Positions 8,059 through 32,257 of a stretch of 64,000 bases of DNA are shown here, one piece after another; position 1 is the first letter of the stretch; each line of letters opens with the position of its first letter. This stretch comes from Acidimicrobiales bacterium (GTDB taxonomy: Bacteria; Actinomycetota; Acidimicrobiia; Acidimicrobiales; CATQHL01): contig CBDBQD010000001.1 in the NCBI GenBank assembly GCA_965209115.1, positions 1,122,071 to 1,186,070 on the forward strand, written 5' to 3'. The position numbers and the translations under genes are program-made. Under the pieces are notes generated by a model. The model worked only from the letters and a program-made list of their open reading frames with translations. It was not told the origin of the DNA and ran no database searches.

Positions 8059-8071
8059 TGCCTCTCTCCCT

Positions 8072-9910: not shown

Positions 9911-10013
9911 TGATCCATTCCACCCGGGCGTCGGTGCTGACTGACTGTCCTTCGAGCACGATCAGTATTTCACGTCCATCCCGTGGAGGGGTGACGATCC
10001 CGCGCCTGGTCGG

Positions 10014-12104: not shown

Positions 12105-13769
12105 TCAGGTCGCTGCGGGGCCGGTGGCGTCGCGGCGAGCGGCGAGGGCGGCGCCGCGTTCGATGAGTTCGCTGCGCAAGACCTTGCCCATGTGGTTCCG
12201 GGGAAGCTCGGCGACGGGGTGGAGCCGCTTCGGCACCTTGTAGGCGCTGAGGTTCCGGCGCGCCCAGCGGCGCAGTTCGTCGGGATCGAAGCCGGCCGAG
12301 CTGACCACGAAGGCCGTGACCTCCTCGCCCCAGCGCGTCGACGGCACTCCCGCCACGGCCACGGCGTCGACGGCGGGGTGGCCGGCCAGCGCCTCCTCCA
12401 CCTCGGTCGGATGCACGTTCATGCCGCCGGTGATGATGATGTCCTTGAGACGCCCGACGATGGTGACCGCCCCTGTGGCCGGGTCGGCTTCGGCCTGATC
12501 GCCGGTGGCGAACCAGTCACTTTCGGCGAGGGGTGCTTGCCCGGCGTAGCCGCCGAAGAGTTGCGGACCGCGGACCGATAGTTCGCCGGTTGCCTCGTCG
12601 ATGCTGATCTCGACCCCCGGCAGCGGGAAGCCCACGCCGCCGGGCCGGCGCGCTCCGTCGTGGAGGTTCGAGATGTTCAGCCCCGACTCGGTTGTGCCGT
12701 AGCGCTCCAACGGCGGCATGCCCAAGGTGTTCTGGATCCGTTCGAAGAGGGCCGCCGGCAGAGGCGCCGAGCCGGAGATCGCCAGACGCAGCGCGGGCGC
12801 CTGCACCGTGGGGTGGGTGGCGACGATGCGTTCCCATATGGCGGGAACGGCCAGGAGGATCGAGGCGCTGCGCCGTTTCGCCTCGTCGATGAGCTGTTCG
12901 GGGTCGAATCGTGAAAGGCAGTGGAGGGACGACCCCGACAGCACCGAGGCGTGCAGGGCGCCGAGACCGTGCTGGTGGTGCATCGGCAGGGCGTGCACCA
13001 CGACGTCGCGGCGCATCCAGCGCCAAGCCGACATGACGCCGCGGATCGAGGCCTGCACGTCGCCGTGGCGCAGCGGCGCCATCTTGGGTTCGCCGGTCGT
13101 GCCGGAGGTGAACGCGCCGATCGCCACGTCGCCGCTGCGGGGCAGCCGCGCCAGCGGCACGCCAGTGGTGCCGGTGGCGGCGGCCGGCAGCCCGACCGGC
13201 AGGTGCAGGACGCCGCCGGTGCCGCGCCCGTCGGGCCGTTCCCGCACCGGGTCGCCGCCGGCCGTCGAGCCGTGTGACGACTCGGCGATCTCCTCGGCGA
13301 GGTCGTCGACCAGGAGATCCGAGACGGTGTCGGTCGCCTGACCGCCGGTGATCGCCGCGGCGGCCTCCGCCCGGACCATCCGGGCGCGCAGCTCGGTGGC
13401 GGTGGCGTCGGGGCCCGAGAGCACCACCGGCGAGCGCAGGGTGAGCAGTGCCAGGTAGCAGCGGATGAAGTCGAGCGAGTTGGGTGCCGCCAGCAGGCTG
13501 GCCGACCCCTCCCTGACACCCAGCGACGCCAGATGCGAGGCCAGGGCGTCCACCTGGCGGGCGAGGACCGCCAAGCTCACCTGCTGGTCGTCCACGCCGA
13601 TGAGGGTGCGCTCGCCGCCGGCGTAGGCCCGCCGTCGCAGCGCCCGCGGCAACGAACCGCCCCGCAGCCTGCGGGCCAACTCCCGGCGGTCCACCAGCGG
13701 CGGGAGCCTCGGGTCGTGCAGCCTCCAGGCGCGCGCCGTGGCCTCGTCCACAGGTTCCGTCGGCGCCAT
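12105..13769 (-). CDS. AMP-dependent synthetase/ligase (acyl-CoA synthetase family)
   Basis: AMP-binding motif FTSGTTGEPK. Start set at MAPTEPVDE, 7 bp after the upstream crotonase stop. Confidence 0.85.
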   Translation of the reverse strand: MAPTEPVDEATARAWRLHDPRLPPLVDRRELARRLRGGSLPRALRRRAYAGGERTLIGVDDQQVSLAVLARQVDALASHLASLGVREGSASLLAAPNSLDFIRCYLALLTLRSPVVLSGPDATATELRARMVRAEAAAAITGGQATDTVSDLLVDDLAEEIAESSHGSTAGGDPVRERPDGRGTGGVLHLPVGLPAAATGTTGVPLARLPRSGDVAIGAFTSGTTGEPKMAPLRHGDVQASIRGVMSAWRWMRRDVVVHALPMHHQHGLGALHASVLSGSSLHCLSRFDPEQLIDEAKRRSASILLAVPAIWERIVATHPTVQAPALRLAISGSAPLPAALFERIQNTLGMPPLERYGTTESGLNISNLHDGARRPGGVGFPLPGVEISIDEATGELSVRGPQLFGGYAGQAPLAESDWFATGDQAEADPATGAVTIVGRLKDIIITGGMNVHPTEVEEALAGHPAVDAVAVAGVPSTRWGEEVTAFVVSSAGFDPDELRRWARRNLSAYKVPKRLHPVAELPRNHMGKVLRSELIERGAALAARRDATGPAAT

Positions 13770-14628: not shown

Positions 14629-15543
14629 GTGATGGCAGTGGCGACTGAATCCGAGACGTCCACGCTGGCGGTCAAGACCGCTGACGGGGTGGCGCTGCAC
14701 ACAGAAGCAGTCGGCAGCGGCGATCCGATCCTGTTCATCCATGAGTTCGCCGGCGACCATCGCACCTGGGAGCCGCAGATGCGGCGGTTCTCACGCAGTC
14801 ACCGCTGCATCACCTACGGCGCGCGCGGCTATCCCCCGTCCGAGGTTCCGCCCGATCCCGCCGCGTACTCCCAGCAGCACGCCGTCGGCGACGCCGTCGC
14901 GGTGCTTGACGCCCATTCGGTCACCGAGGCGCACGTTGTCGGGATCTCCATGGGAGGTTTCGCCGGGCTGCACCTCGCCATGCAGCATCCGGAGCGTGTC
15001 AGGTCGGTGGTCGCGGCGGGCACGGGTTACGGCGCCCGCCCCACCGAAGTTGACCGCTTCCGCTGGGAGTGTGATGCCATCGCGGAGGTGATCGAGACCG
15101 CGGGAATCGCTGCGTTCGCCGAGCAGTACATGTCCGGGCCGTCGCGGGTGCAACTGCAGAACAAAGATCACCGCGCCTGGCAGGAGTACACCAGGTGGGT
15201 GAGCGAGCATTCGGCGGAAGGCTCGGCCGCCACGATGCGCGGCGTGCAGCGGGAAAGGCCGTCGCTGTACGCCCTGGAGGCTGAACTGGCGGCGATCGCG
15301 GCCCCGGTGCTCGTTCTGGCCGGCGACGAGGACGACGGCTGCCTGGAGACGAGCGTGTGGCTGAAGAGGGTGGTCCCGACGTCCGGCCTCGCCGTCCTCC
15401 CCAAGTCGGGGCACACGCTGAACGTCGAGGAGCCGGATCTTGTGAACACGCTCATCGCGGACTTTCTGCACCGGGTCGAGGCCGGCGTTTGGGGACCGCG
15501 AGATCCGCGCGCCGATCCGGGAGCCATCACCGGCTTCTCGTGA
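14629..15543 (+). CDS. Alpha/beta hydrolase
   Basis: Nucleophile elbow GISMGG and an HEFAGDH oxyanion region. Start is GTG 14629, ATG 14632 or GTG 14638. Confidence 0.85.
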   Translation: MMAVATESETSTLAVKTADGVALHTEAVGSGDPILFIHEFAGDHRTWEPQMRRFSRSHRCITYGARGYPPSEVPPDPAAYSQQHAVGDAVAVLDAHSVTEAHVVGISMGGFAGLHLAMQHPERVRSVVAAGTGYGARPTEVDRFRWECDAIAEVIETAGIAAFAEQYMSGPSRVQLQNKDHRAWQEYTRWVSEHSAEGSAATMRGVQRERPSLYALEAELAAIAAPVLVLAGDEDDGCLETSVWLKRVVPTSGLAVLPKSGHTLNVEEPDLVNTLIADFLHRVEAGVWGPRDPRADPGAITGFS

Positions 15544-16414: not shown

Positions 16415-16525
16415 CCCGGATCCGTCATCCCGGCGGAAGGCCCCGTCATCCCGGCCTGCCCCGTCATCCCGGCCTGCCCCGTCATCCCGGCCTGCCCCGT
16501 CATCCCGGCGCAGGCCGGGATCCAT
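16415..16525 (+). repeat. Tandem array of 5 CCGTCATCCCGGC half-sites (period 18-20 bp) ending in the full hairpin CCCGGC-GCAG-GCCGGG + ATCCAT
   Basis: Read directly from the sequence. Begins 13 bp after the SDR stop. Same architecture as 52607-52677. Confidence 0.9.
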
Positions 16526-16591: not shown

Positions 16592-17275
16592 CTACGCCGA
16601 TCGCTTGTCCCGCCGCGCCCAGATACGGTCGATGTACGCCACCGCCTCGGGTGTCTTGCAGGAGGTCTCGCCGTGGTCCACGGCGACGGGGCCGATCCGC
16701 CGGGCGGAGGCGGTCGCGCTCTCCCGCAGTGACTCGTTGCGGCCGCCGATGGCGATGAGGGCGCCGTTCATGCAGTGACGGACCCGGTTGGCGGCCGTCG
16801 CGATGCCGGATTCGATGCTCTCGAGTCGCATCTCGAAGTACCCGTCAGGCAAACCCTTGCCGGCGAGGGCCTGTTGCGCCACGAGGGTCCAGCCGGCCGC
16901 GACCAGCCACTCGCCGTCATCGGCGGTCCAGTCCTCCGCGCAGCCGTCCAGGAACGGCGTGCGGGCGACGAACGCGGCCATCTCGTCGATCAGGACATAG
17001 TTGCCGAGGTCCGCAACCCAGGCCTCGATCTCGGACCGCCCGGCCTGCGCCGGGTCGGCGACGGCAAGAGCCAGCACGCGGGCGTCGTGGTTCCCGCTCG
17101 CCCACAGCGCCCTTGCCAGGTCGTGATCGGGCCCGAGCTTCTTCCCCATCTTGCGGAGGTGGGCGAAGCTGACGCCGAACATCGGCTCGTTCACGCCGTG
17201 ACGGGCGTAGACCTTGCGGTTCTGGGCCGTGCCCAGCGCCTCCAACTCCGCCAACACGCGGCCGGGATCGCTCAT
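16592..17275 (-). CDS. DNA alkylation repair protein (AlkD-like HEAT-repeat family)
   Basis: Start at MSDPGRVLAELEALG. NRKVYARHGV...FGVSFAHLRKMGKKLG...LARALWASGNHDARVLA resembles the DNA-alkylation-repair family. Confidence 0.6.
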   Translation of the reverse strand: MSDPGRVLAELEALGTAQNRKVYARHGVNEPMFGVSFAHLRKMGKKLGPDHDLARALWASGNHDARVLALAVADPAQAGRSEIEAWVADLGNYVLIDEMAAFVARTPFLDGCAEDWTADDGEWLVAAGWTLVAQQALAGKGLPDGYFEMRLESIESGIATAANRVRHCMNGALIAIGGRNESLRESATASARRIGPVAVDHGETSCKTPEAVAYIDRIWARRDKRSA

Positions 17276-17627
17276 CGCCGATGCCGCTCCTTCCGGGTGC
17301 GCCGTTTCGCGGCGTGTACCACTCGGTCCTGTGCAGACCTCTCGCCTGCGCACCAGGCACCACGATATGTGATCGCCCTGAGGCCGCCGCAGCCGAGCGG
17401 CGTACGTCTGCCGAGGCCGTGGCGGATCGGGCCGACGAGGACCCCCACGCCGAGCCGACCGTCCGCTACCTCATCGACCCGTTCCGCGACTACACCCTCC
17501 ACTTCGCCGAAGCCAAGATCACCCTCAACGTCGCCGACCTCCTCACCGCCGCCGGCCAGCCTTGCTGAGCGTCGCTCGGCACCGTCCCGCGGGTCGGCCG
17601 CCAGAAGCGCGGGCTATCCTTACATCG

Positions 17628-18710
17628 ATGGACAGTGTCTGCCCGCAGCGAGCGTGGGTGGAGGCGCTGCGCCCGGGTACGTTCTTCCGGACGCGCGACG
17701 TCCCTGGTCCGACGCGTGGCGCGGTGTCGACGTTCCTGAGCCGGGAGGCGTCCAAGCCCGCGGGTCGGGCCGTTTGCCGGCGGGTCGCGCCGAACCTGTA
17801 CTGGAAGCCCCGTCGTAACGAGCGTGGCGTGCCGATCGAGCCGGACTACCTGGCCCTTGCGGGGGCCATCGCCGGCCGCGGTCACGGGATGGCGGGCCAC
17901 GACGCCGGAATCGTCGCCGGGTGGCTGACGCACACCGTCTCGGCGACCGCGACGGTGGCTGTGGTGGGTGAGCCGAGCGTGCGCAGGCCGCTGCCGACGC
18001 TCCTCCTGCGGGCGCGGGCGAACACGCGCCGGCGCGCCCTCACTCCTCTCGAGGTCACGTATCTCGAAGCGATCGCCTCCTTCGACGAGTGTGCGGAGGT
18101 TGACTGGCCTGCCGCGCTGCGGATCACCGAACGGCAGGTCGGGCATCGCGGCCGGTTGCGCACACGGCTCATGCTGGCGGTCGCTGCGGCCGAGCGCGGT
18201 CCGGGCTCGCTCGGGCTGCGTGGACGACTGGGCGAGTTCTGCGACGTGGTCTCGGGCCTGCCGCCTCCGGCCGCACCGGTTCTGCCCCCGCCGCCGCGGC
18301 CGGTGTTGGATCGCCGCTTGGTGACCGCCGCCGATCTGCCGTCGTGGATGGCGGAGTCGCCCGGATCGCGCATCGGCGCGCTCTCCACGTTCGTCAACCA
18401 CTGGGCGCATTATCCGCACCATCGCGCCGCGTTGTGCGCCGCGCCGCCGCGGGGGGAGAACCGTCTGGATCTGGCGCGGATCGCCGCCACGGTGCACGCC
18501 CTCTGCGACAGGGACGCCGTCGAGGTTCCACACTGGGTGTGGGCGAACCGTTGGCACGAGGACGTCGCGGTGCACAGCGCCGGCACGGTCACCCCGGAAC
18601 TCCGGGAGATCGCGCCGGCCGCCTGTCGCCTTCACCGGGTCTGGTTCGCCGATGACCACATCATGTGCATCTCCGTCCACGGATTCTGGAACCGTCGGCA
18701 CGCCGCATGA
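17628..18710 (+). CDS. AbiEi-like winged-helix protein with an extra C-terminal domain of unknown function
   Basis: The N-terminus WVEALRPGTFFRTRDVPGPTRGAVSTFLSREASKPAGRAVCRRVAPNLYWKP has the AbiEi-antitoxin N-domain pattern. The last 150 aa or so are W/H-rich and unrecognised. Confidence 0.5.
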   Translation: MDSVCPQRAWVEALRPGTFFRTRDVPGPTRGAVSTFLSREASKPAGRAVCRRVAPNLYWKPRRNERGVPIEPDYLALAGAIAGRGHGMAGHDAGIVAGWLTHTVSATATVAVVGEPSVRRPLPTLLLRARANTRRRALTPLEVTYLEAIASFDECAEVDWPAALRITERQVGHRGRLRTRLMLAVAAAERGPGSLGLRGRLGEFCDVVSGLPPPAAPVLPPPPRPVLDRRLVTAADLPSWMAESPGSRIGALSTFVNHWAHYPHHRAALCAAPPRGENRLDLARIAATVHALCDRDAVEVPHWVWANRWHEDVAVHSAGTVTPELREIAPAACRLHRVWFADDHIMCISVHGFWNRRHAA

Positions 18711-19375
18711 CGGAAGTGAGGTTCACGCGCGACGAACTGCTCGCGCTGTTTGCCGCCGTCGATGAGCTTCTGCCGGAGGGCGATCCGCTCCGGGTTCCCG
18801 TCGGCGGCGCCGTGGCGATCATGGCGGTCCAGCCGGGGCGCGTATCCAGCGACGTGGACGTTTTCCTGCCCACGCTGCCGCCAGACCTGCGCCAGGCGGT
18901 CACCGCCGTGACCGAGCGCCATCGACTGCCCGAGGGATGGTTCAACACCACCGCCGGCGAGATGGGGCTTCCGCCGTTCGAGTTGGACGACGAGCCGTTC
19001 TTCGAGGGGAATCGGCTGGTGGTCGAAGTCGTCGATCCCACCTCGAAGCTCCTGCTCAAGCTCAACGCAGCACGGGCCAAGGACCGCGAAGACATTCTCG
19101 TACTGATGGAAGCGACAGGGTTCACCTCACAGGACGATCTGCTTCTGTTGATAGATGCGCACTTCGACGAGTATCCCGGGTCCAGCCTTGACCGCCTCTG
19201 GATGCAGGGAGTCGCCCGGGAAGCGGCGCTCGAGTTCCGGCGGCGGGCGTGGAATATCGAGGGCCCTGACGACACCGGCGGCGCGGCCCCAAGTCCTGTC
19301 GACGAGGAGGAGTTGCTGCGCCAATGGGGCCTCGAAGTCGATTCCCCGCCGGACGGACCTCAACCCGATCGGTGA
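18707..19375 (+). CDS. Nucleotidyltransferase-fold protein (minimal NTase; AbiEii/DUF6036-like)
   Basis: ATGA overlap with the upstream gene. VGGAVAIMAVQPGRVSSDVDVF matches the G-x-x...S-x-D-x-D NTase motif. KLLLKLNAARAKDREDILVL is a helix typical of these NTases. Confidence 0.5.
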   Translation: MTEVRFTRDELLALFAAVDELLPEGDPLRVPVGGAVAIMAVQPGRVSSDVDVFLPTLPPDLRQAVTAVTERHRLPEGWFNTTAGEMGLPPFELDDEPFFEGNRLVVEVVDPTSKLLLKLNAARAKDREDILVLMEATGFTSQDDLLLLIDAHFDEYPGSSLDRLWMQGVAREAALEFRRRAWNIEGPDDTGGAAPSPVDEEELLRQWGLEVDSPPDGPQPDR

Positions 19376-19661
19376 CCGATGCAGCGGGTGTGTCTGCTGG
19401 TCAGCGAGGGTTGTCGGCGTCGGCGGGGAGGATGCGCAGGGGACGGCCGCTGAACGACCGCCGTGCCGCAGTTCGACAGGACATGAGGCATCGCATAAGG
19501 CTGGGAGGCCTCGCGGGCGATGCTGATTGATCTCGAGATGAGGAGCCGCATCCGAGACTTGGTAGGGGGAATTCGGAAGGCCGGGATCGAGTTCGCGTTT
19601 GAGCGAGACGCAGGACATGATAAGGCAGATTCGCGTGATGGGGTTGGTACGGTGAGCGGCC

Positions 19662-20528
19662 GTGGCTGGGTATCGGCCGAAGCTGATTGAGGTGGCGCTG
19701 CCTCTGGCCGCGATCAATGCGGAGGCGGCTCGGGAGAAGTCGATACGGCACGGGCACCCGTCGACATTGCATCTGTGGTGGGCTCGGCGGCCGTTGGCGG
19801 CGGCCCGGGCGGTGATCTGGGCTTCGCTGGTGGACGATCCGTCCGGGGACGAGTCGCTGACCGCTGCCGAGCAGGACGCTGAGCGGGCTCGGCTGTTCGG
19901 CATTCTCACGCAGCTCGTGCAGTGGGAGAACTCGAACAACCCGGACGTGCTGCCGGCGGCTCGGGCCGAGATCGACCGGTGCTTCCCGGATGGGCCGCCG
20001 GCGGTCCTGGACCCGTTCGCCGGGGGCGGTGCGCACGATGCAGCAGGGCAGCATCGCCCCGGTCGACATGGCACAGTCGACAATCGGGCCGGGGATGAAG
20101 GTGTTCTCCCGCTACAGCAAGGTCGTGGAGGCCGCCGAGTCGGCGATGTCGGTGTCGACGGCTCTGGCGATCATCAACGACGTGCTGGGCGGGATCCTCG
20201 ATGGGGCGGAGGCCGAACTCGACGCCCCGACGCGGTTCGCGCTGACTTGGTACTCGCAGTACGGCTACGAAACCGCGCCGTCGGGTGACGCCGACATCCT
20301 GGCTCGGGCCAAGGGCACGTCACTGGAGGGGATCGAGGAGGCAGGCATCGGCCAGAGGCTCGTGCCGGTCAGACTCGCCTCTACGAGCGTTCGGAGCTGG
20401 CCGAGGGTTGGTCGCCGGCGAGCGACAACGGCTGGGCCGCCGAGGCCGGCACCTACAACGCCCTCATCGCCGCCTGGCCTGCCCTGCGGGCCGCCGACTC
20501 GGTCCCCGAGGCCCCCACGCTCCTCTAA
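19662..20528 (+). pseudogene. DUF1156-type DNA methyltransferase remnant (large internal deletion plus frameshifts)
   Basis: N-terminus [45 protein letters not shown]...DPFAGGG, then a jump at about 20031-20055 into the C-terminal region ([21 protein letters not shown]...) in another frame. A third frame ends ...LYERSELAEGW...TLL*. Confidence 0.7.
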
Positions 20529-20613
20529 TGCACCTGTTCGGGCAGGTGAGAACGTCGGGCCGCTGCCCGGATCGAGATCATCGGTCGGTCGGGCTGACCT
20601 ATTCGCGCACACT

Positions 20614-20993
20614 CTAGTCCCAGCGGACGAGGATCGGCCCTCCGCGTCCCAGGCTGCCCACCAGTGCGGCGAAATCACCGGTGTCCGCCGTGAGAATGTC
20701 ATCGGCAAGCTGTGTTGCGAGCACCACGAGGTGCGCGTCCACCACATCGGTACCGCCGGACCTCCGGAGCAGGCCGCCAACTCGTGTCGCGTCGGCATGC
20801 TCAAACGGGTGCACATCCACGGATCGGAGGAACCGGCCGAGCCGGACCTGTTGAGGAGGGCTTCGCAGGACCTGTGCCACGACTGGAGCGCTCGTTCGAA
20901 GCGGCTCCCCTCGTGCGACGGCCTGATTTACGACCGCAGAGACCTCGGCCTCACCGCGGTCTACGCGATCAGCGGTCCCGCGTCGAGGATCAC
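20614..20993 (-). pseudogene. PIN-domain toxin (VapC-like) with an N-terminal frameshift
   Basis: The GTG overlaps the antitoxin stop (GTGA). It reads VILDAGPLIA, then an in-frame TAG at 20961-20963. The rest of the PIN domain (VDRGEAEV...DVVDAHLVVLA...ILTADTGDF) is in the -1 frame. Confidence 0.6.
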
Positions 20994-21223
20994 CTATTGA
21001 AGTAGCGGCGCCCCGCCTCGGCGACCGCTTCGGGATCGGGATGTCCGAACTCCTCGATCCATTCCTGTTCGAACTCGCGAAGCGCCTGCCGCCGGCGGCT
21101 GTGGGCTGCGAGCAGTCGGAGGCCTTCCCGGACCGCAGCTGACTGGCTGCCGAACTCCGCGGCCAACTCCTCAAGCAGCCGGGAATCGTCGCCGTTCAGT
21201 CGGATCGTGGTGGCCTTGGCCAT
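20990..21223 (-). CDS. Ribbon-helix-helix (CopG-like) antitoxin
   Basis: 77 aa. MAKATTIRLNGDDSRLLEELAAEFG fits a beta-strand followed by a helix, the RHH pattern. It lies directly upstream of the PIN gene. Confidence 0.7.
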   Translation of the reverse strand: MAKATTIRLNGDDSRLLEELAAEFGSQSAAVREGLRLLAAHSRRRQALREFEQEWIEEFGHPDPEAVAEAGRRYFNR

Positions 21224-21351
21224 GGCTCCAGGATACTTGGATGTGACGTTGCGAGACTACGCGGCCCCGCTCGGGCGGGCGCTGTCGCAGGGGCGGTCAT
21301 AGTGTCTGCGGCGCGGCCTCGCCGCTGCCTCAGGAGGTTCGCCGCATCGTC

Positions 21352-22582
21352 ATGAGCAACAGCGAGCGCGTCGGGCGGGCGCTGCCGGCGGCGGCGGGGA
21401 GGGCGGCAGCGGTGGGCAGCGCCTTCCCGGTGGTGACTTCGACACGCAGTTCACGTTCGCGCAGGCGCTGACCGAGGCCGCGGCGGCGGTGCCGAACGTG
21501 GTGGTGCTGGTGACGGTCCCGGCGTCGGACATCGAGGCGGGCGGCGACCGGGGGCGCACGGCGTTGGAGCGGCTGAAGAACGTGGTGACCCGCACGGCGG
21601 CGCAGTGGCAGCCGGCGTCGCCGGACGAGTCGTTCGAGATCGTGCGGCGGCGGCTGTTCGATCCGGTGCCGGCGGAGCGGGCGAGGGTGCGCGACGGGGT
21701 CGTCCGGGCGTTCAGCGAGATGTACCGGGACCGGCCCGGCGATTTCCCGTCGGGCGCCGGCGAGGTCGACTACCGCAAGCGGATGGAGCTGTCGTACCCC
21801 CTGCACCCCGAACTGTTCGACCGGCTGTTCGGGGACTGGTCGGCGCTGGACCGCTTCCAGCGCACCCGGGGGGTGCTGCGGCTCATGGCGCTGGCGATCT
21901 CGCAGCTCTGGCAGCGCGGCGACCGGTCGCTGCTGATCATGCCCTCCAGCCTGCCCATGGACTCCGGCACGCTCGTGAGCGAGTTGAGGAAGTACCTGGA
22001 GGAGGGCTGGGACCCGGTCATCAAGGCCGATGTGGACGGCGCGAACTCCCTGCCGCTGCGCATCGACAACGAGACGCCGCACTTCGGGCGCCTGTCGGCC
22101 ACCCGGCGCGCCGCACGCACCGTCTACGTGGGCTCGGCGCCCCGGCCCGACGCCAAGCGGGGCGTGGACCTGCGCTCGGTGGTGCTGGGGTGCGCCCAGC
22201 CCGGCGAGCCGACCGGCCAGTTCGCCGACGCGCTGAAGCGGCTGTCGGGCGAGGCGACGCACCTGCGCACCTGTACGTGGACGGCAACCAGTACTGGTAC
22301 TCGCTGCAGCCCAACGTCACCCAGGTGCTGATCCCCACACAGAAGCCGGGCACCCCAGAGGTGGACTGGCAGACCGCCAGGGCGAGCACCGACGGCGACA
22401 TCGGCGCCCGCGTGAGTCGCAAGCTCGCCAGCAGCGAAGAACTGATCGCCCGCCTCGGCTCCGACCTCGAACTCTCCCTCGAACTCCGAGCCAACAAGCC
22501 CGACGGCTACGACGACGCCACCCAACGAATCGTCTCCGAGAACGCCGCCAACCTCGGCGCCACCGCAAGCGAGTTCGAGTAG
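21352..22582 (+). pseudogene. DUF499-type ATPase remnant (5' truncated, frameshifted, internally deleted)
   Basis: Lacks the Walker region. Carries FDTQFTFAQALTEAA...FEIVRRRLF...HPELFDRLF...TRGVLRLMA. Frameshifts at about 21428 and 22258-22273. The C-terminal ...IVSENAANLGATASEFE* follows shortly after YVDGNQYWYSLQPNVT. Confidence 0.7.
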
Positions 22583-22625
22583 GCGCCGGCGTCAATCGCA
22601 GACGCTGGCCGGTTCGCTGATCGTT

Positions 22626-22674
22626 GGATTCCGGCCCTGGATCGAGTCCGGGGCCGGCTCTGCGCCGGAATGAC
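22626..22674. repeat. REP-like compound element GGATTCCGGCC-N27-GCCGGAATGAC
   Basis: Read directly. Near-identical to 24424-24472 and related to 25787-25837. Confidence 0.85.
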
Positions 22675-22698
22675 GTCGGGTTCGGCGTGCCGGAGCCA

Positions 22699-22821
22699 GT
22701 CGGAGACCGCGCGGCGGGGGATGCAGAGGGCGGGCGGTCCGGGAGGCGGGCTCGGCTCCTCGGCGGTCTCTGCCGCCGGCGAACCGGACGTGGCGGCACC
22801 TTCGGGTAGCCGCGGGCCGCC
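22699..22821 (-). pseudogene. 3'-terminal fragment of a YHYH-lipoprotein gene
   Basis: GGPRLPEGAATSGSPAAETAEEPSPPPGPPALCIPRRAVSD parallels the C-terminus of the intact gene (GGPQLPEGAVTSGSPAAQTADD...PPALCLPRLGVCD). Confidence 0.6.
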
Positions 22822-22948
22822 GGCCGGTATTGCTGTCGTCGAGGAGTTCCGACGCAGCGGCCGAGGCATCGACGACCGATGGCCGGGGCCGTCCTCGCGG
22901 GAACTCGACGCTCTGAGCCGCGTGGATTCGACATCCTGCACTCCTCAC

Positions 22949-22985
22949 GGGTGCAAATCGTAGGTAGCACTTACGGATCGCACCC
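22949..22985. promoter_or_regulatory. Imperfect palindrome GGGTGCAAATCGTAGGT-AGC-ACTTACGGATCGCACCC upstream of the ATPase gene
   Basis: 13 of 17 arm positions pair. Low-GC patch ending 19 bp before GTG 23004. Confidence 0.3.
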
Positions 22986-23003
22986 ACGAGGTAGGATGCG
23001 GGA

Positions 23004-24224
23004 GTGATCGAGCGCGAGATAACACCGCATCTGGTGCGCCTGTTCGGGCAGTATCCGTTCGTGACGGTGACCGGACCGCGCCAGTCCGGCAAGACCACAC
23101 TGTGCCGCTCAGCGTTCGGCGAGTTGGCGTACGCGAACCTCGAGGATCCTCAGGTGCGCGCCTATGCGGAGCGTGACCCGCGCGGCTTCTTGGCGGAGTT
23201 CCCCGACGGCGCGGTCCTCGACGAGGTCCATCGCGTGCCGGACCTGCTGTCGTACCTGATGGTGCTGGGCGATGAAGCGGGCCGGCCCGGCATGTTCGTG
23301 CTGACCGGCAGTGAGCAGTTCGGCCTGACAGGGGCGGTGAGCCAGTCACTCGCCGGCCGCACGGCACTGCTGCGGCTGTTGCCGTTCTCGCTGGCCGAGT
23401 GCCGCCGGGCCGGCGCCTCCGGACGGATCGAGGAAATCCTCTACGACGGCTGCTACCCGCGGATCCACGATCGGGGCCTCAACCCCACCGAGGCGCTCGG
23501 CGCCTACTGGGAGACCTATGTCGAGCGCGACGCGCGCCGGATCGGGCGGATCCGCAACCTCAGCCAGTTCCGGGACTTCGCCGGCCTGTGCGCGGGCCGC
23601 GTCGGCCAGCTGCTCAACCTGACGAGTCTCGGCGGCGACGCCGGTGTGTCGCACCCCACAGCGGCCGAATGGATCGCCGTCCTCGAGGCCAGCGACATCG
23701 TCTTCCGGCTCCGGCCCCACCACGCCAACACCCGCAAGCGCCTCACGCGCTCGCCGAAGCTCTACTTCCATGACGTCGGCCTGGCCGCCTACCTGTTGGG
23801 GATCAGCGATCCGGACCAGCTGGTCCGCCACCCCCTGCGCGGCGCCCTGTTCGAGAACGCGGCCATTGTGGAGGCCGTCAAGCACCGCTACAACAGGGGC
23901 ACCACCGCGTTCCTTCCCGACATCGCCTTCTACCGGGACCACAAGGGGTTCGAGGTCGACCTGCTCTACCCGACGGGCGACGGGCTTGCCGCCATCGAGA
24001 TCAAGTCCGGCCGCACTGTCGCCTCGGACTGGTTCGCCGGCCCCGCCCGGCTCGCGGGCACCCTGCCGGGAATCACCGCGCAGGCCGTCGTGTACGGCGG
24101 CACGGAGCGCCAGCACCGCACCGCTGGCGACGTCGTGCCGCTCGGGCAGTTCGCGGAGTTCCTGGCCAACCTGGACGTGCCGTCCTCGCATCTCGCACCA
24201 GACGGCCTCGACCTCCTGCCCTGA
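23004..24224 (+). CDS. AAA-family ATPase with DUF4143 C-terminal domain (AAA_14/DUF4143 type)
   Basis: Walker A GPRQSGKTTL and Walker B AVLDEVH. LTGSEQF...LAGRTALLRLLPFSLAE is typical of this family. GAGGTAGGA lies upstream of the GTG. Confidence 0.85.
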   Translation: MIEREITPHLVRLFGQYPFVTVTGPRQSGKTTLCRSAFGELAYANLEDPQVRAYAERDPRGFLAEFPDGAVLDEVHRVPDLLSYLMVLGDEAGRPGMFVLTGSEQFGLTGAVSQSLAGRTALLRLLPFSLAECRRAGASGRIEEILYDGCYPRIHDRGLNPTEALGAYWETYVERDARRIGRIRNLSQFRDFAGLCAGRVGQLLNLTSLGGDAGVSHPTAAEWIAVLEASDIVFRLRPHHANTRKRLTRSPKLYFHDVGLAAYLLGISDPDQLVRHPLRGALFENAAIVEAVKHRYNRGTTAFLPDIAFYRDHKGFEVDLLYPTGDGLAAIEIKSGRTVASDWFAGPARLAGTLPGITAQAVVYGGTERQHRTAGDVVPLGQFAEFLANLDVPSSHLAPDGLDLLP

Positions 24225-24235
24225 TCGTTCGTCCG

Positions 24236-24381
24236 GATCGTCGTCGCCGAGAGCAAGATCACTCTCACCGTCGCCGACATCCATGTGCGAAGTCGGCCGT
24301 GGTGCCGTTTTTGCCTCCTCCGCGTTGAATCGTCTCGGAGACCGCCTCCAACCTCGGCGCCCCGCAAGCGAGTTCGAGTAG
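24236..24381 (+). pseudogene. Second, more degraded DUF499 3'-end remnant
   Basis: Reads ...KITLTVADI... and then, across frames, IVSETASNLGA / ASEFE*. This parallels ...IVSENAANLGATASEFE* at 22527-22582. Confidence 0.45.
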
Positions 24382-24655
24382 GCCTGGCGGCAGTCGCAGA
24401 TGCTGGCCGGTTCGCTGATCGTTGGATTCCGGCCCCGGATCGAGTCCGGGGCAGGCTCTGCGCCGGAATGACGTCGGGTGGGGCGCGCCGGCGTCAGTCG
24501 CAGACGCCGAGGCGGGGGAGGCAGAGGGCGGGCGGTTCGGGCGGTCGGGTGGGTGGTTCGGACGGTGAGGTCGGTGCCTTGGCGGGATCGTCGGCGGTCT
24601 GCGCCGCCGGCGAACCGGACGTGACGGCGCCCTCGGGGAGTTGCGGGCCACCGGC
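24327..24655. repeat. Right copy of the approximately 300-bp direct repeat
   Basis: See 22527-22825. By eye, identity is roughly 80-90% with several indels. Confidence 0.85.
24424..24472. repeat. REP-like compound element
   Basis: GGATTCCGGCCCCGGATCGAGTCCGGGGCAGGCTCTGCGCCGGAATGAC. Confidence 0.85.
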
Positions 24656-25783
24656 GTGCGGGTCGCCGGGGCGCAGCTCGCCGCGGAACCAGGGGCCGAG
24701 GATGTAAGGGAAGGTGTCGGTGAAGCTGCCGTCGCCGTTCTGGATGCGGGTGACGTGGTAGTGGTAGCCCAGGTCGTCGTGGGAATGTCCGTTGAAAGCA
24801 TCGAGGGCGTGCGGCGCCCCGTCGTCGAGGCCGATGTCGAACCAGTAGTCCTCGAAGAATGCGCCCGCAGGGACCTCCGCGGTGGTGGGTCCGGGGGCAG
24901 GCGCCGGCACCACGCCGCCGGCGGGGTCCAGCGAATCGGCCAGGCGGCAGGTCCGGCGGCCGGCTTCGGCGCACCCTGTCGCCGATCCCGCCGTGTCGTA
25001 GTCCCGGAGCCGCCAGGAGCTGCGCGCCAGGAGTTCCAGGTCGGCCCAGGGGCCGTGCACCGGGTAGCCGTCGGCGGCGAAGCCGTAGACGGGGGAGTGC
25101 CGGGCGCCGTCGTCGCCGAGGTGCAGCGCCAGGCACTCCGGGTAGACGTGCGGTGAGGACTCGTCGGCCGCCGGCCCGGCACAGGAGAACCCGTCGTCGC
25201 CCACCGCGCCGGGCGCCACCGTGCGCCAGACGCCCTCGCCGCGGTAGGTCCCGCCGTTGCTCCAGTTGGCGATGGGGGCGCCGGTCACCCACAGGCCGAT
25301 CGGGGCCCGCCCGGTGGCTGTCGGTGCCGTTGCCGGGGACGGTTCGAGGGGGAACAAGCCCGCCGTCACCTCCCCGCTGCCCGCTTCCCTCGCCACCCGA
25401 ACCGCCACGTAGAGCTCGGCGTCGATCCGCAGCACCTCCAGCGCTGTCGCCCGCACCGCCACCTCCGTCGGCGCCGGCGGCTCGGGAGTGCCTTCCAGCA
25501 CGATGAAGTCGCCGGTGTCGATGGGCTCGTAGTCCTCCCGCAGGTCGAAATGGTGGTTGCGGCGCCACCACGGCGCCGCCGGCTCGCCTCCGAAGCCCGC
25601 CAGGGCGTCGGCGGGAACGAGCCAGGCGGTCAGCAGAGGCCCGCCGGTCGCCGGGTCGCTGAGGGCAGAAGGCCCCGAGGCCGCGGCGCAGCCGGCGGCC
25701 GCCACCATCCCGACGACGGCGAGCGCTCGCGTCAGACGGGCCAGCGAGTCACGGGACCGCTGTGATGCGGGTCTCATCTCCAT
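24494..25783 (-). CDS. YHYH-domain lipoprotein
   Basis: Lipobox VAAAGC. HSHDDLGYHYHVT motif near the C-terminus, followed by a Pro-rich tail ending CLPRLGVCD. Confidence 0.75.
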   Translation of the reverse strand: MEMRPASQRSRDSLARLTRALAVVGMVAAAGCAAASGPSALSDPATGGPLLTAWLVPADALAGFGGEPAAPWWRRNHHFDLREDYEPIDTGDFIVLEGTPEPPAPTEVAVRATALEVLRIDAELYVAVRVAREAGSGEVTAGLFPLEPSPATAPTATGRAPIGLWVTGAPIANWSNGGTYRGEGVWRTVAPGAVGDDGFSCAGPAADESSPHVYPECLALHLGDDGARHSPVYGFAADGYPVHGPWADLELLARSSWRLRDYDTAGSATGCAEAGRRTCRLADSLDPAGGVVPAPAPGPTTAEVPAGAFFEDYWFDIGLDDGAPHALDAFNGHSHDDLGYHYHVTRIQNGDGSFTDTFPYILGPWFRGELRPGDPHAGGPQLPEGAVTSGSPAAQTADDPAKAPTSPSEPPTRPPEPPALCLPRLGVCD

Positions 25784-25786
25784 AGT

Positions 25787-25837
25787 CTGGATTCCGGCCC
25801 CGGATCGAGTCTGGATTCCGGCTTTCGCCGGAATGAC
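25787..25837. repeat. REP-like compound element containing the full hairpin GGATTCCGGC-TTTC-GCCGGAATGAC
   Basis: Read directly. Lies between the YHYH gene start and the stop of the glutamate-synthase-family gene. Confidence 0.85.
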
Positions 25838-25859
25838 GGGTGTTCATGGCTTGGAATTA

Positions 25860-27389
25860 TCAGTCGGTGGTGCTCACCAATCCGCGCATGCTCTGGCCGG
25901 CGAGTTCCGCCTGTTCGGTGCTGAGGGTGTCGAGATCGGGTGGGTAGCGGTAATGCTGGCAGAGGTCCACCCTCTTCGCCGGTTCCTCATACAGCAACTC
26001 CAGCGCGGTCGGCGGGACCAGCGCCGGATGAGCCACCCCGCAGGCGTGGGCCAGCTGCAGCAGTTCGGCCCGCAGGCTCATGATGTAGTTGGCGCAGCGC
26101 ACCGACTTGAGCGCCGGATCCAGGCCACGCGTCAACCAGCGGCTGTGGGTGGTGATGCCGGTGGGGCAGCGCCCGGTGTGACAGCGCTGGGTCTGGACGC
26201 AGCCGATCGCCAGCAGCGCCTCGCGCCCCACGTTCAGGAGATCGGCGCCCATGTTCATGGCCGCTAGGCCCTCGGCGCCGAATCCCAGCTTGCCGCCGCC
26301 GACGAAGGTCACCTTGTGGTGCAGGTCGTGGCCGGCGAAGGTGAGGTACACCCGGGCGAATCCCCGCCGGAAGGGCAGCGCCACGTTGTTGGTGAACACC
26401 AGCGGCCCCGCGCCGGTGCCGCCCTCGCCGCCGTCCACGTTGACGAAGTCGGGGCCCTCACCCCGCTCGGCCATGCGGCGGGCCAGCTCGTCCCAGAATC
26501 GGGCGCCGCCGACGGCGGACTTGATGCCCACCGGCAGGCCGGTCGTGTCGGCGAGCAGCTCGGTGAAGTCGATGAGGCCGTCCACGTCGCCGAAGGCGCT
26601 GTGCGCGTTGGGGCTCTTCACCGTCTTGCCGACCGGCACGCCTCTGGCGGCGGCGATCTCCGGTGTCACCTTCACGCCGGGCAGCATGCCGCCGAGGCCG
26701 GGCTTGGCCCCCTGGCTGAGCTTGACCTCGATGGCCCGGACCGGCGCCCCGGCGACGGTCTCAGCCAGCCTCGGCAGGCTGAAGGTGCCGTCGGGGTTGC
26801 GGCAGCCGAAATAGCCGGTGCCTATCTGGTAGATGAGCTCGCCGCCGTTGCGGTGGAAGTTGGAGATGCCGCCCTCGCCGGTGTTGTGCAGGCAGCCGGC
26901 GAGCCGCGCGCCGATGTTCAGGGCCTCAACCGCCGGGCCGCTGAGCGAGCCGTAGCTCATCCCCGAGATGTTCACGACCGACGCCGGCCGGAAACGTCCC
27001 GGGCGGTCCCGCCAGGCGCCCAACTCCTTGGCGCACGGCAGCGTGGCCGCCTCATCGATCCCCTCGGTGTGCGGGAAGGCGGCGTGCTTGATGATGAGGT
27101 AGCCGGTCCGGTCAACGTCCTGGTCGGTCCCGAAGCCGAAGTTGGGGTTCTGGCGCTTGGCCGAGGCGTAGACCCAGCGGCGCTGCGCCCGGTCGAAGGG
27201 CCGCTCCTCGTCGTTGCTGGCGACGATGTACTGGCGCAGTTCGGGGCCGATGCTCTCCAGCAGGTAGCGGAGATGTCCGATGATCGGGAAGTTGGCCAGG
27301 ATGGTGTGCCGGCGCTGCACCACGTCGTGGACAGCCACCGCCAGCAGGAACCCCCCGATGACGATCACGGCGATGAGCCAGCCGGCCAT
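25860..27389 (-). CDS. FMN-binding glutamate synthase family protein (GltB domain-2-like), N-terminal TM anchor
   Basis: Start at MAGWLIAVIVIGGF. NVDGGEGGTGAGP and GLGGMLPG motifs. Confidence 0.85.
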   Translation of the reverse strand: MAGWLIAVIVIGGFLLAVAVHDVVQRRHTILANFPIIGHLRYLLESIGPELRQYIVASNDEERPFDRAQRRWVYASAKRQNPNFGFGTDQDVDRTGYLIIKHAAFPHTEGIDEAATLPCAKELGAWRDRPGRFRPASVVNISGMSYGSLSGPAVEALNIGARLAGCLHNTGEGGISNFHRNGGELIYQIGTGYFGCRNPDGTFSLPRLAETVAGAPVRAIEVKLSQGAKPGLGGMLPGVKVTPEIAAARGVPVGKTVKSPNAHSAFGDVDGLIDFTELLADTTGLPVGIKSAVGGARFWDELARRMAERGEGPDFVNVDGGEGGTGAGPLVFTNNVALPFRRGFARVYLTFAGHDLHHKVTFVGGGKLGFGAEGLAAMNMGADLLNVGREALLAIGCVQTQRCHTGRCPTGITTHSRWLTRGLDPALKSVRCANYIMSLRAELLQLAHACGVAHPALVPPTALELLYEEPAKRVDLCQHYRYPPDLDTLSTEQAELAGQSMRGLVSTTD

Positions 27390-30481: not shown

Positions 30482-30697
30482 CCTCTCTCGTTCGCCCTTC
30501 GGCCCGCCGTACCTCCGACGCGTCGCCGAGATTCTGCCAGGAAGCGCTGCCCCACGGGCGCGCCGAGTGGCGCACCACCGCCTGACCAACTCGTCGGCGC
30601 ACAGATCGCGCGAGTCAGGCCCTGAAATTCGCGCAGGTTATGATGTGCAAAACGCGCATCTTAGACTCTCCAGAATGCGTAGGAAGGAGTTTCGACG

Positions 30698-32050
30698 TTG
30701 CGCAGGCCGAATGCCCAGCGGCGCCGGCCGCCTGACGTGACCGATCCGACCCGCGCTCGAGGGCGCGGTGCCAGACTCTCGGTCGAGCTGCCGGTGCTCA
30801 CCTCGGCGGCACCCGGCGGGACCGACGCGTACATCCCCCGGTTCGTGGACACCCACCTCGAGCAAGCCCTGTCGAGGTCGGGCGCGGTGGAACTGCGCGG
30901 CCCGCGCGGCGTCGGCAAGACCACCACCGCCCTGCAGGTCGCGCGCACAGTCTTCGCCTGCCAGAACGCCGACACCGCGGCCGCCATCCGCCAGGATCCG
31001 CGCTCGGCTCTGCTCGGACAGCGCACTCCCGTGCTGATCGACGAGTGGCAGGAGGTGCCCGAGGTGCTTTGGGCGGTGAAGGAGCACCTCGACACGTCGA
31101 ACGATCCTGGGCGGTTCATCATCACGGGGTCACTTCGTGGCCACCAGGGGGAGCAGTCGCCGCTCACGGGGCGGGCCGAGGCGATCGACATGTTCCCGTT
31201 CAGCGTGGCCGAGCGCCGCGGTGTTCGGACAGCGCCGCTCGCGGAGAGGTTGTTCGATGTCCACGACATCGAGGTCGGCGACACCGACCTCGGCATCAAC
31301 GACTACGTCGCCATCGCTCTGGAGAGCGGCTACCCGAACACGATGAGCGAAGTCGATCCGGGGGCGCGTGCGGCTCGGCTGCGCAACCGGATCGACGGAA
31401 CTGTCAACGTGGACGGCCTCGTCGGCCGGCACGACCGATCGAAGCTGGCCGACTTCGTCGCCGCCTACGCGCTGCACTCCGGCGGTGTCGTCCCCCTGCA
31501 GCGACTCTGCGACGACGTGGGCATCTCCCCCAACACCGGTCGGGCGTACGAGGCCTTACTGTCGAGGACCTACCTCGTGGCCGACGCCCCGTCGTTCCAC
31601 CATAACCGCATAAGTCACCTGCGCCGGTCGCCCAAGCGCCTGCTGGTGGACGCCGGTCTGCTCGCCGCGGCCTGGGGCGTGGGCGCCGACGTCATCTCCC
31701 GCAGCGCCGATCTGCGTGGGCGGTTGCTCGAGACGTTCGTGGCGGCGCAACTTCGTGCCGGCGCCCTTGCCTCCAGTGTGCGATACAGCCTCGGGCATCT
31801 CCGCCGCAACGGGCGCGAAGTGGACTTCGTGCTGGACGGCGGTGTCCGTGGCGTCGTGGCCGTGGAGGTGAAGGCGGGCATCCACGGCGGCCGCAAGGAG
31901 GCGAGGCATCTCTTCTGGCTCCGGGACCAACTCGGGGACTCCTTCGCCGGGGGCGTGGTTCTACACACCGGGCGCCGCCCCCCGCACCCCCTGGACGGCG
32001 CGCCGACGGGCCGCATCTGGTCGGTGCCGGTCTCCGTCCTCTGGGCCTGA
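30698..32050 (+). CDS. AAA-family ATPase with DUF4143 C-terminal domain (second copy)
   Basis: TTG start with AGGAAGGAG 8 nt upstream. Walker A GPRGVGKTTTA, Walker B VLIDEWQ, and ITGSLRG...LTGRAEAIDMFPFSVAE. Confidence 0.8.
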   Translation: MRRPNAQRRRPPDVTDPTRARGRGARLSVELPVLTSAAPGGTDAYIPRFVDTHLEQALSRSGAVELRGPRGVGKTTTALQVARTVFACQNADTAAAIRQDPRSALLGQRTPVLIDEWQEVPEVLWAVKEHLDTSNDPGRFIITGSLRGHQGEQSPLTGRAEAIDMFPFSVAERRGVRTAPLAERLFDVHDIEVGDTDLGINDYVAIALESGYPNTMSEVDPGARAARLRNRIDGTVNVDGLVGRHDRSKLADFVAAYALHSGGVVPLQRLCDDVGISPNTGRAYEALLSRTYLVADAPSFHHNRISHLRRSPKRLLVDAGLLAAAWGVGADVISRSADLRGRLLETFVAAQLRAGALASSVRYSLGHLRRNGREVDFVLDGGVRGVVAVEVKAGIHGGRKEARHLFWLRDQLGDSFAGGVVLHTGRRPPHPLDGAPTGRIWSVPVSVLWA

Positions 32051-32198
32051 ACTTGCCGGGCGCCTCGGTGCTGCCACGCCCCGGGGTGAGCAGGATCCCG
32101 TGGACCTCGCGGATGAGCCGGTTCGACAGTGGGAAGCCGTCCTCTCGCAGCCGCTTCAGCCCGTGCTCCAAGGCCGCCAGGTAGTCGGATTCCGCAGC
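32046..32198 (-). pseudogene. Fic/DOC family gene fragment (about 50 codons upstream of the Fic core)
   Basis: SDYLAALEHGLKRLREDGFPLSNRLIREVHGILLTPGRGSTEAPGKFR. Homology stops at the PGxFR motif, exactly at the stop codon of the ATPase gene. Confidence 0.5.
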
Positions 32199-32235
32199 CG
32201 GATTCCGGGGAACTGAGACTTCAGGCCCGACTCTT
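32199..32235 (+). repeat. 37-bp repeat CGGATTCCGGGGAACTGAGACTTCAGGCCCGACTCTT, copy 1
   Basis: Identical to 36897-36933, in the same orientation. Confidence 0.9.
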
Positions 32236-32257
32236 GGTCGTCTGGTCTCTTGTGGGG

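Follow-up and report, generated by a model that had tools for sequence, protein, structure and literature searches.

The locus described here belongs to an uncultured sponge symbiont, an Acidimicrobiales bacterium (assembly GCA_965209115.1, contig CBDBQD010000001.1), and lies within a stretch of 64,000 nucleotides that we refer to as the window. Its subject is a single intact gene, encoding an ATPase with AAA_14 and DUF4143 domains, that stands between two direct repeats of ~300 bp. The remains of the Hma gene hmaC (DUF499) end in the left repeat copy, and the intact gene of a YHYH-domain lipoprotein, which runs toward hmaC on the opposite strand, ends in the right copy (Table 1). Comparison with related genomes and metagenome contigs (denoted here by L numbers) indicates that the ATPase segment was inserted at the tail-to-tail junction of hmaC and YHYH, with duplication of ~300 bp of that junction. 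A first-pass annotation of the window had drawn attention to the repeats and had proposed that they arose when a circular or foreign segment recombined with the chromosome; below we describe the anatomy of the locus and then weigh this proposal against other routes.

Table 1. Features of the ATPase locus and of the islet around it, with positions in the window.
Feature	Position	Strand	Remarks
Variable islet	17276-24493		bounded by the conserved 227-aa gene (16595-17275) and YHYH
AbiEi-like gene	17562-18710	+	left part of islet
DUF6036 nucleotidyltransferase-like gene	18665-19375	+	left part of islet
hmaB (DUF1156 methylase) pseudogene	19662-20522	+	
VapC(PIN)-like and ParD/RHH-like toxin-antitoxin pair	20614-21223	-	weak family matches
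hmaC (DUF499) pseudogene	21423-22582	+	
Left repeat copy	22527-22825		hmaC end, 23-bp block, REP insert, second block, YHYH fragment
Left copy, last 17 codons and stop of hmaC/DUF499	22527-22582		
Left copy, 23-bp block	22583-22605		
Left copy, REP-containing insert	22606-22687		
Left copy, degenerate second block of 23-26 bp	22688-22713		
Left copy, YHYH-tail fragment of 42 codons	22699-22824	-	tblastn; stop lost, TCA to CCA
UL, left part of insert	22826-23003	+	
AAA_14 and DUF4143 ATPase gene, 406 aa, intact	23004-24224	+	PD-(D/E)XK-type C-terminal domain; Pfam, PADLOC
UR, right part of insert	24225-24326	+	
Right repeat copy	24327-24655		
Right copy, frameshifted 17-codon DUF499 end	24327-24381		
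Right copy, degenerate 22-bp block	24382-24403		
Right copy, REP-containing insert	24404-24485		
Right copy, intact 23-bp block with functional YHYH stop TCA	24494-24496 (stop)		
YHYH-domain lipoprotein gene, intact	24494-25783	-	Pfam YHYH
Third copy of the REP palindrome (TGGATTCCGGCC...GCCGGAATGACG)	25788-25838	+	between the YHYH start and the glutamate-synthase-like stop

The hmaC/YHYH junction and its direct repeats

Segments 22527-22825 and 24327-24655 repeat each other collinearly and in direct orientation (blastn E=1e-85), as had been read from the sequence in the first-pass annotation. They agree at 264 of 296 aligned bases (89%), differ in addition by one indel of 33-34 nt, and are unevenly conserved along their length. 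Identity is highest in an insert that contains a repetitive extragenic palindromic (REP) element (78/82), and the longest perfect runs (~33 and ~26 nt, found by eye and not by a comparison of the whole repeat) apparently fall in this patch as well. To its left are the hmaC/DUF499 3′ end (52/55 identical, with a deletion of 1 nt in the right copy) and a 23-bp spacer block (18/22); to its right are a second block of 23-26 bp (19/26) and the YHYH tail (97/111), where the indel reflects a 33-nt tandem duplication gained by the functional tail in the right copy.

Because the ~300-bp junction was duplicated together with the insert, each flanking gene kept a complete 3′ end. That of YHYH is the right repeat copy itself and is complete only there, as first described; the left copy retains a YHYH fragment of 42 codons (tblastn) whose stop is lost. 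Conversely, the DUF499 end is degraded in the right copy, where it is frameshifted, again in agreement with the earlier description. What is redundant in each copy, namely the left YHYH tail and the right DUF499 end, is decaying. The spacer that had been called the same in both copies is indeed common to them but is itself nested, being an insert with its own 23-bp duplication.

The junction was found in its empty state in three relatives that carry the Hma genes (L002, L005 and L041), where the DUF499 stop lies 9-160 bp from the YHYH stop. In L002, the hmaC stop TAG is followed by GCGCCGGCG and then by the YHYH stop TCA, giving a spacer of 9 bp; the spacer is 11 bp in L041 and consists of ~160 bp of unrelated sequence in L005. 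We considered whether these sites had instead lost an insert through a later deletion between the repeats and rejected this: all three relatives also lack the REP insert and so are not products of such a deletion.

The same arrangement was present in an independent sample. A contig from a different metagenome (L039) matches positions 22662-24370 collinearly at 99.2%, spanning both novel junctions, and a further contig (L040) spans 22881-24310 and supports the right side, with identities at the junctions of 98.5-99.2% in the two. Since L039 spans both junctions, the arrangement is not an assembly artifact. The ATPase gene is carried by short-read contigs of only 1.2-2.3 kb, all ending within the repeats, which might suggest a mis-join or an expansion during assembly; however, the two copies differ by 11% plus indels, L039 comes from another sample and another assembler run, and the source contig, from which identical ATPase and YHYH proteins are on record, is 1.7 Mb long (1,707,114 bp), so that such an origin is exceedingly improbable. 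The first-pass annotation had itself named an ancestral two-copy state and an assembly artifact as the readings contrary to its own, and had expected relatives with an empty site; the three empty sites and L039 answer both contrary readings in favor of its observation.

The inserted gene, the nested element and the islet

The insert between the two repeats measures exactly 1,501 bp, and the ATPase gene is its only intact gene, as reported at first. Neither a transposase nor a recombinase was found in the insert or among the main open reading frames (ORFs) of the islet (ORF list, Pfam, PADLOC and NCBIfam), and the insert has no terminal inverted repeats (p ~0.5 and ~0.9); with a duplication of 300 bp, this agrees with the earlier judgment that the repeats are not a transposon target-site duplication. 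A continuation of YHYH or DUF499 was not detectable in the ends of the insert. Lacking remnants of the flanking genes, the insert thus sits exactly at the join of two complete repeats.

The two noncoding parts of the insert differ in their distribution. In UL, positions 22826-22946 occur only in the lineage of the window, L019, L037 and L039, and positions 22947-23003 are the conserved upstream region of the ATPase gene, with a GC content of 58% vs ~70% elsewhere. An imperfect palindrome (~22934-23004) overlaps the ATPase start codon, and its predicted DNA fold was not equaled in stability by any of 200 shuffled sequences (z=-2.8). The gene had been credited with its own low-GC promoter and palindrome; the low GC content and the palindrome stand, but consensus scans found no sigma-70-type promoter, and they found no terminator. 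In UR, the first 21 bp are common to a second context of the gene (L019-type, see below), and the other 81 bp occur only in the window-type contigs L039 and L040. No Rfam match was obtained in 22000-26200, and searches returned no relative of solved structure and no PHROG match.

The ATPase matches PF13173 (1e-22), PF13635 (4.5e-43) and the PADLOC profile PDLC04790 (2.2e-83), which represents the candidate defense family PDC-S01. Residues G29 and K30 of the Walker A motif and D319, E332 and K334 of the D...E-x-K motif are invariant in alignments with homologues of 24-77% identity, and a dN/dS ratio of 0.16 against 90%-identical orthologues indicates purifying selection. On these matches, the protein is a candidate defense member of the PDC-S01 (COG1373) family, with a predicted anti-phage role. 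Orthologues that are 85-91% identical occur in unrelated contexts (L012-L018 and L020-L023), and a protein scan of metagenome contigs likewise yielded only orthologues of 85-90% identity in such contexts. The stretch that they have in common with the window runs from 22947/22969 to 24184/24216, that is, the gene and 35-57 bp upstream of it, which argues against a conserved element beyond the gene. One orthologue (85% identical; L022, 4565-5884) is truncated at its 5′ end (residues 36-403), and after it comes a piece of the gene in inverted orientation (residues 136-182), suggesting that PDC-S01-type cassettes also decay and rearrange.

The REP-type element is nested within the repeats. Each copy (22583-22713 and 24382-24511) holds an insert of ~82-86 bp that carries the GGATTCCGGCC...GCCGGAATGAC palindrome (TGGATTCCGGCC...GCCGGAATGACG) and has on either side a 23-bp block, a direct duplication of the ancestral sequence GCGCCGGCGTCAGTCGCAGAC, which comprises the hmaC/YHYH spacer and the YHYH stop. 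For an insert of this size, a target duplication of 23 bp is long. Of the four blocks, the two on the functional sides of the genes (the left one of the left copy and the right one of the right copy) agree with the ancestor at ~22 of 23 positions, and their partners are degenerate. Independent entry of the element into each repeat copy was rejected; that the conserved blocks are the two functional ones fits a single ancestral REP event followed by decay of the redundant blocks. In the nearest lineage, L043 (YHYH 82% identical), the REP insert immediately adjoins the YHYH stop at the end of the contig, and we therefore place the REP event before the ATPase event.

The element is dispersed. Near 34048, the minus strand carries a short form, GCCGGAATGAC with at most one mismatch was found 15 times vs 2.2 times expected, and the hairpins fold as expected. 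Copies also occur in L007, L012, L018 and L043, and in another species the core of 51 nt is conserved at 98% identity. A relative of the core, GTCATCCCGGC, forms part of an 18-21-nt unit that is repeated in tandem five times at 16424-16509, between the dehydrogenase and 227-aa genes, and three times at 52609-52661. The stretch 25784-25885, which comprises the third REP copy and an adjacent ~50 bp with the last codons of the glutamate-synthase-like gene, recurs at 82.5% in L012 (5309-5410), directly 3′ of another DUF4143 gene. This leaves two readings: the REP element extends beyond its core, or a fragment of a gene end traveled along with it.

The ATPase gene lies within a variable defense islet. 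YHYH is a core gene, and its relatives are all from Acidimicrobiales/Acidimicrobiia metagenome-assembled genomes, several of them with sponge-type sample names; its synteny with the glutamate-synthase-like gene is kept in 12 relatives. The usual order in most relatives is glutamate-synthase-like gene, YHYH, 227-aa gene and short-chain dehydrogenase gene, with ~50 bp between YHYH and the 227-aa gene, vs 7.2 kb (17276-24493) in the window. The cargo of the islet consists of the AbiEi-like and DUF6036 nucleotidyltransferase-like genes, remnants of hmaB and hmaC, the VapC/ParD-like pair and the ATPase gene; its contents vary among relatives, and it is a mosaic with many deletions and replacements.

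Hma defense systems consist of a helicase (HmaA), a methylase (HmaB) and an ATPase (HmaC). Profile matches and comparison with L002 found only fragments of hmaB and hmaC in the window, and intact copies are not present there. Relative to the 942-aa orthologue of L002, the hmaB remnant joins residues 1-119 to 714-825, with the loss of 120-713, and then matches weakly to ~930. The hmaC remnant retains residues 376-674, 825-876 and 1037-1084 of the 1,084-aa L002 orthologue; residues 1-375 are lost, as are 675-824 and 877-1036 through two internal deletions of ~150 and ~160 codons, and there is one frameshift. The VapC/ParD-like pair occupies the gap where the 3′ part of hmaB and the 5′ part of hmaC are lost. 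The Hma genes at this locus are dead and decaying by several internal deletions plus a frameshift. Farther to the left in the window, three tandem paralogous genes of ~1.6 kb each (6184-11651; 71-75% DNA identity) enclose a tRNA-Arg gene (7886-7966) within their stretch.

Other DUF4143 genes and repeat pairs

A second DUF4143 gene at another breakpoint in the window had led to the suggestion that ATPase genes of this kind travel as cargo of an unrecognized insertion process. This gene (30698-32050; DUF4143/PDC-S01, 29% identical to the first) does lie in a clean insertion of 1.78 kb (30490-32269), in place of which L001, L002, L004 and L010 have an intergenic spacer of 30-80 bp. No direct repeat flanks this insertion. 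A Fic-like remnant, seen by eye and without profile confirmation, lies beside the gene at ~32050-32260 on the minus strand.

Among 22 DUF4143 genes surveyed with adequate flanks, three were bracketed by repeats (the index gene of this study and one each in L024 and L012); none of nine DUF4143 genes in viral contigs was. Counted as repeat pairs, there were four bracketing ones, of which the index gene accounts for two, vs ~0.57 expected if the genes were placed at random relative to the existing repeat pairs (P ~0.003). Without the index gene, two cases stand against ~0.4-0.5 expected (P ~0.06, a rough estimate of our own), which is suggestive but not significant. We conclude that the case for repeat bracketing as a property of DUF4143 genes, as judged from these neighborhoods, is weak. 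Of the suggested cargo process, the part that holds is that the second gene, too, was inserted; it was inserted without repeats, bracketing is not general, and no element is apparent beyond the gene.

The bracketed cases outside the window resemble it in geometry. In L024, 59-bp copies of the smpB 3′ end (5598-5656 and 7204-7262; 90% identical) bracket a DUF4143 gene that is 48% identical to that of the window, with a smpB fragment upstream of the ATPase gene and an intact, convergent smpB downstream. L024 belongs to an unrelated low-GC organism and carries, 2 kb upstream, a Tn7/Mu-like transposase (rve + Mu-transpos_C, 905 aa) and a TniB-like ATPase. In L012, 82-bp copies of a PIN-gene 3′ end (14998-15079 and 17307-17388) flank a DUF4143 gene and dtd, and 110-bp copies of the 5′ end of a nucleotidyltransferase (NTase)-HEPN gene (12231-12340 and 14808-14917) flank an N6-methylase gene and NspV; the displaced fragments lie 81 bp apart, as if keeping an older adjacency. 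A 183-bp pair in L007, which brackets an uncharacterized ORF of 533 aa, added nothing. All bracketing pairs seen were 88-94% identical, none near 100%. In L004, the YHYH 3′ end including the stop region is duplicated in tandem with a period of ~69 bp (~11296-11365, downstream of the YHYH stop), with 45 nt repeated at 4 mismatches and no inserted DNA.

Routes of insertion and comparison with known systems

The divergence of the repeats bears on when they arose. Over the 130 alignable sites of the YHYH tail, sequences too short to separate an origin from a donor from one in situ, the two copies agree with each other at 107 sites and with other species (L043, L041 and L002) at 105-110, a star-like pattern. 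Three adjacent derived bases (GAACCGGACGTG vs GAGCGGGAGGTG in six outgroups) are, however, confined to the two copies, which also have the REP insert in common. Synonymous divergence (dS) between the window and L001, L002 and L041 is ~0.2 for the glutamate-synthase-like gene, dS to L043 is 0.19 for YHYH, and dS among the ATPase copies in the population is ~0.02; the repeats are ~10 times as diverged as the ATPase is within the population. These values fit repeats that differed from the outset because the insert came in by recombination with the DNA of a related strain. They also fit a duplication about as old as the split from L043, the shared patch being either ancestral or a gene-conversion tract. 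The shared REP insert and derived bases imply that any donor was of the same lineage or that gene conversion has blurred the record.

The ATPase gene also occurs in a second context. Three contigs (L019, L037 and L038) carry the unit 22710-24245 at 99% and diverge from the window 21 bp after the ATPase stop, continuing with 76 unrelated bp, a second YHYH-tail fragment, UL, the first 42 bp of the ATPase gene and a leucine-rich-repeat (LRR)-type lipoprotein gene (L019, 1461-2335). The second YHYH-tail fragment is identical at 117 of 117 positions to the left copy of the window, and UL is 96% identical. The resulting order of ATPase 3′ end, 97 bp, YHYH-tail fragment, UL and ATPase start is head to tail, as it would be in a looped-out or tandem unit, and these contigs show that the unit with its captured YHYH fragment has recently been duplicated or moved. 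Metagenome contigs gave no exact 25-nt match to the YHYH-tail/UL junction, the LRR-lipoprotein fragment after the unit had no database match, and the 76-bp spacer of L019 showed no similarity to anything nearby; a single 16-nt match (p ~0.02) in the comparisons of this spacer and of the insert ends was taken as chance.

Our leading explanation, which we hold tentatively, is that a circle carrying the ATPase gene and a diverged copy of the junction integrated by a single homologous crossover, that is, by a Campbell-type event. The nesting of the elements suggests the order of events: an ancestral junction of hmaC-TAG, 9 bp and TCA-YHYH would first have received the ~82-bp REP-palindrome insert with its 23-bp target duplication, the ATPase gene would then have been inserted with the 300-bp duplication, and the Hma genes would have decayed by deletions. 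For the second of these events, the circularized ATPase gene with its diverged junction copy would have recombined once with the chromosomal junction, and the circle itself might have been looped out in a related strain where the gene was already bracketed by repeats. As for the crossover, its most likely site would be the REP-containing patch, where the longest runs of perfect identity appear to lie. Repeats that were ~11% diverged from the start would resist loop-out deletion, which would explain both the persistence of the insert and the lack of near-identical pairs. By whatever route, selection probably filters the outcomes of insertion, because the two genes abut within 9 bp and an insertion without a copied junction would truncate one of them.

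Several observations favor Campbell-type integration. Two complete copies of a contiguous segment that is single in relatives directly enclose the insert, independent contigs (L039 and L040) reproduce the junctions, the insert has one ORF and neither a recombinase nor terminal inverted repeats, and the star-like tail distances together with the ATPase dS of ~0.02 fit repeats that diverged before the insert arrived. The uneven identity with its maximum in the REP patch, the head-to-tail-like junction of the L019-type contigs and the 88-94% identity of all other insert-bracketing pairs speak for it as well. Other points weigh against it. No circular form or donor locus was found, and the DUF499-end and REP part expected of the circle is absent from the L019-type junction. 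Both copies share the REP insert and the three derived bases, and their divergence is also compatible with an old duplication in situ, given the YHYH dS of 0.19 to L043. Sequences that differ by ~11% over 300 bp are a poor substrate for RecA-dependent recombination. Finally, the model explains the spread of a junction-plus-ATPase unit and not the origin of the first one. Thus, the proposal of the first-pass annotation that a circular or foreign homologous segment integrated by recombination gains from the geometry and the empty sites but is without a donor, and the tail data fit duplication in situ as well; we regard its observation as accurate, its mechanism as viable but unproven, and its generalization to DUF4143 genes as weak.

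A possible, though somewhat unlikely, alternative is duplicative insertion in one step, in which 1.5 kb of DNA was joined at breaks staggered by ~300 nt, or by template switching during replication, so that the duplicated junction resembles a very long target-site duplication, and the copies, identical at first, then diverged by ~11%, mostly in their nonfunctional halves. The exact placement of the insert between complete copies would follow from this, as would the better conservation of the functional halves (the 23-bp blocks at ~22/23 vs the ancestor, with degenerate partners) and the derived bases and REP insert that the copies share. Duplications of other lengths at the YHYH junction (23 bp at the REP element and a period of 69 bp in L004), the two adjacent inserts of L012 with duplications of 82 and 110 bp in the order A-X1-A-B-X2-B, and the same geometry at the 59-bp smpB 3′-end duplication of L024 also favor it. 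However, none of six bracketing repeat pairs is young (near 100%), the repeat divergence is ~10 times that of the ATPase in the population, and identical 300-bp repeats 1.5 kb apart should recombine away quickly. Moreover, we know of no bacterial enzyme that makes duplications of variable length from 20 to 300 bp.

A history of several steps without a circle is unlikely in our view. In one version, the junction was duplicated in tandem and unrelated DNA was later inserted at the join; in the other, strains with an intact Hma system and with the ATPase gene next to a 17-codon DUF499 remnant exchanged DNA by one homologous and one illegitimate join. Tandem duplications do occur here (in L004, and the 33 nt in the YHYH tail of the window), the islet is a mosaic whose contents differ between relatives through deletions and replacements, and gene remnants beside replaced genes are common, such as the Fic-like one next to the second DUF4143 gene. 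Yet a random insertion in a redundant zone of ~400 bp would rarely hit the exact join, and no leftover repeat sequence is present in the ends of the insert. In addition, no contig shows the intermediate that such a history predicts, with UL and the ATPase gene but without the left YHYH-tail fragment; the YHYH-tail/UL junction is shared by all four contexts.

Repeats derived from the 3′ end of an adjacent convergent gene are a classic signature of integrase islands, and integrase-mediated islets in gene 3′ ends have integrase-less derivatives that are mobilized in trans. The repeats could accordingly be the attL and attR sites of an integrase-less element that is mobilized in trans, targets gene 3′ ends and carries a replacement 3′ end. 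The same geometry at smpB in L024 and at the PIN gene in L012, and a highly conserved patch within otherwise diverged repeats, agree with this. It is nevertheless quite improbable: no recombinase is present in the insert or the 7-kb islet, the homology extends over the entire 300 bp and not over a core only, orthologous ATPase genes elsewhere lack conserved ends beyond the gene, and the second DUF4143 insertion has no repeats.

A more speculative idea, to which we likewise give little credence, is that single-gene defense cassettes such as PDC-S01 ATPase-nucleases, along with other islet genes of these genomes, enter tight junctions by a dedicated, undescribed duplicative process that copies 20-300 bp of the target on each side, possibly with the ATPase-nuclease of the cassette itself or with REP-associated machinery. 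The footprints of such a process would be the YHYH junction, smpB in L024, the PIN and NTase genes in L012, the 23-bp REP duplication and the 69-bp duplication of L004.

We conclude that the locus represents a well-documented insertion of a single accessory gene and not a new class of element. The protein family is known as a candidate for defense and the setting is that of a typical decaying defense islet, so that all that is novel is the unusual clarity with which the anatomy of a single-gene acquisition can be read. PDC-S01, an ATPase fused to a PD-(D/E)XK domain, is very common and was nominated by its embedding in defense loci but is not yet validated (PMC12988326; PMC3424549); it is among the candidates put forward by the "guilt-by-embedding" approach (PMC12988326; bioRxiv 10.1101/2024.01.29.577857), and the route by which embedded defense genes arrive "remains to be explored" (bioRxiv 10.1101/2024.01.29.577857). 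For this open question, the locus is a clean worked example: three relatives show the empty site, the nesting dates the events, an independent sample contains both junctions, and both neighboring genes were preserved despite abutting within 9 bp. If long junction duplications are a common footprint, they would offer a simple way to delimit and date single-gene acquisitions in defense islands and a pointer to the recombination route.

In comparison with PDC-S01, the ATPase described here shows strong profile matches and the same order of a P-loop ATPase followed by a PD-(D/E)XK-type domain, with no difference at the level of the protein; it also adjoins an Hma system inside a defense islet, the kind of setting on which the embedding-based nomination was built. 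Campbell-type integration, as seen with suicide plasmids and merodiploids, likewise leaves two direct copies of one segment that is single in relatives and needs no enzyme in the insert, whereas here no circle or replicon was seen, the homology is ~300 bp and ~11% diverged, and the origin of the circle is left unexplained. Integrase islets have in common with the locus the repeats derived from the 3′ end of a neighbor, the intact target and the displaced 3′ fragment on the far side; they differ in that the locus has no integrase, homology over the full length of the repeats, a single-gene cargo and ends that are not conserved among orthologous cassettes. Finally, the nested element resembles the REP-type dispersed palindromic repeats (the 'IPAFAGMT'-coding GCCGGAATGAC family) in being a short GC-rich hairpin present in many copies, both in this genome and in related ones, and placed between convergent genes, and it differs from them here in its 23-bp target duplication and in ~25 nt of extra flanking sequence.

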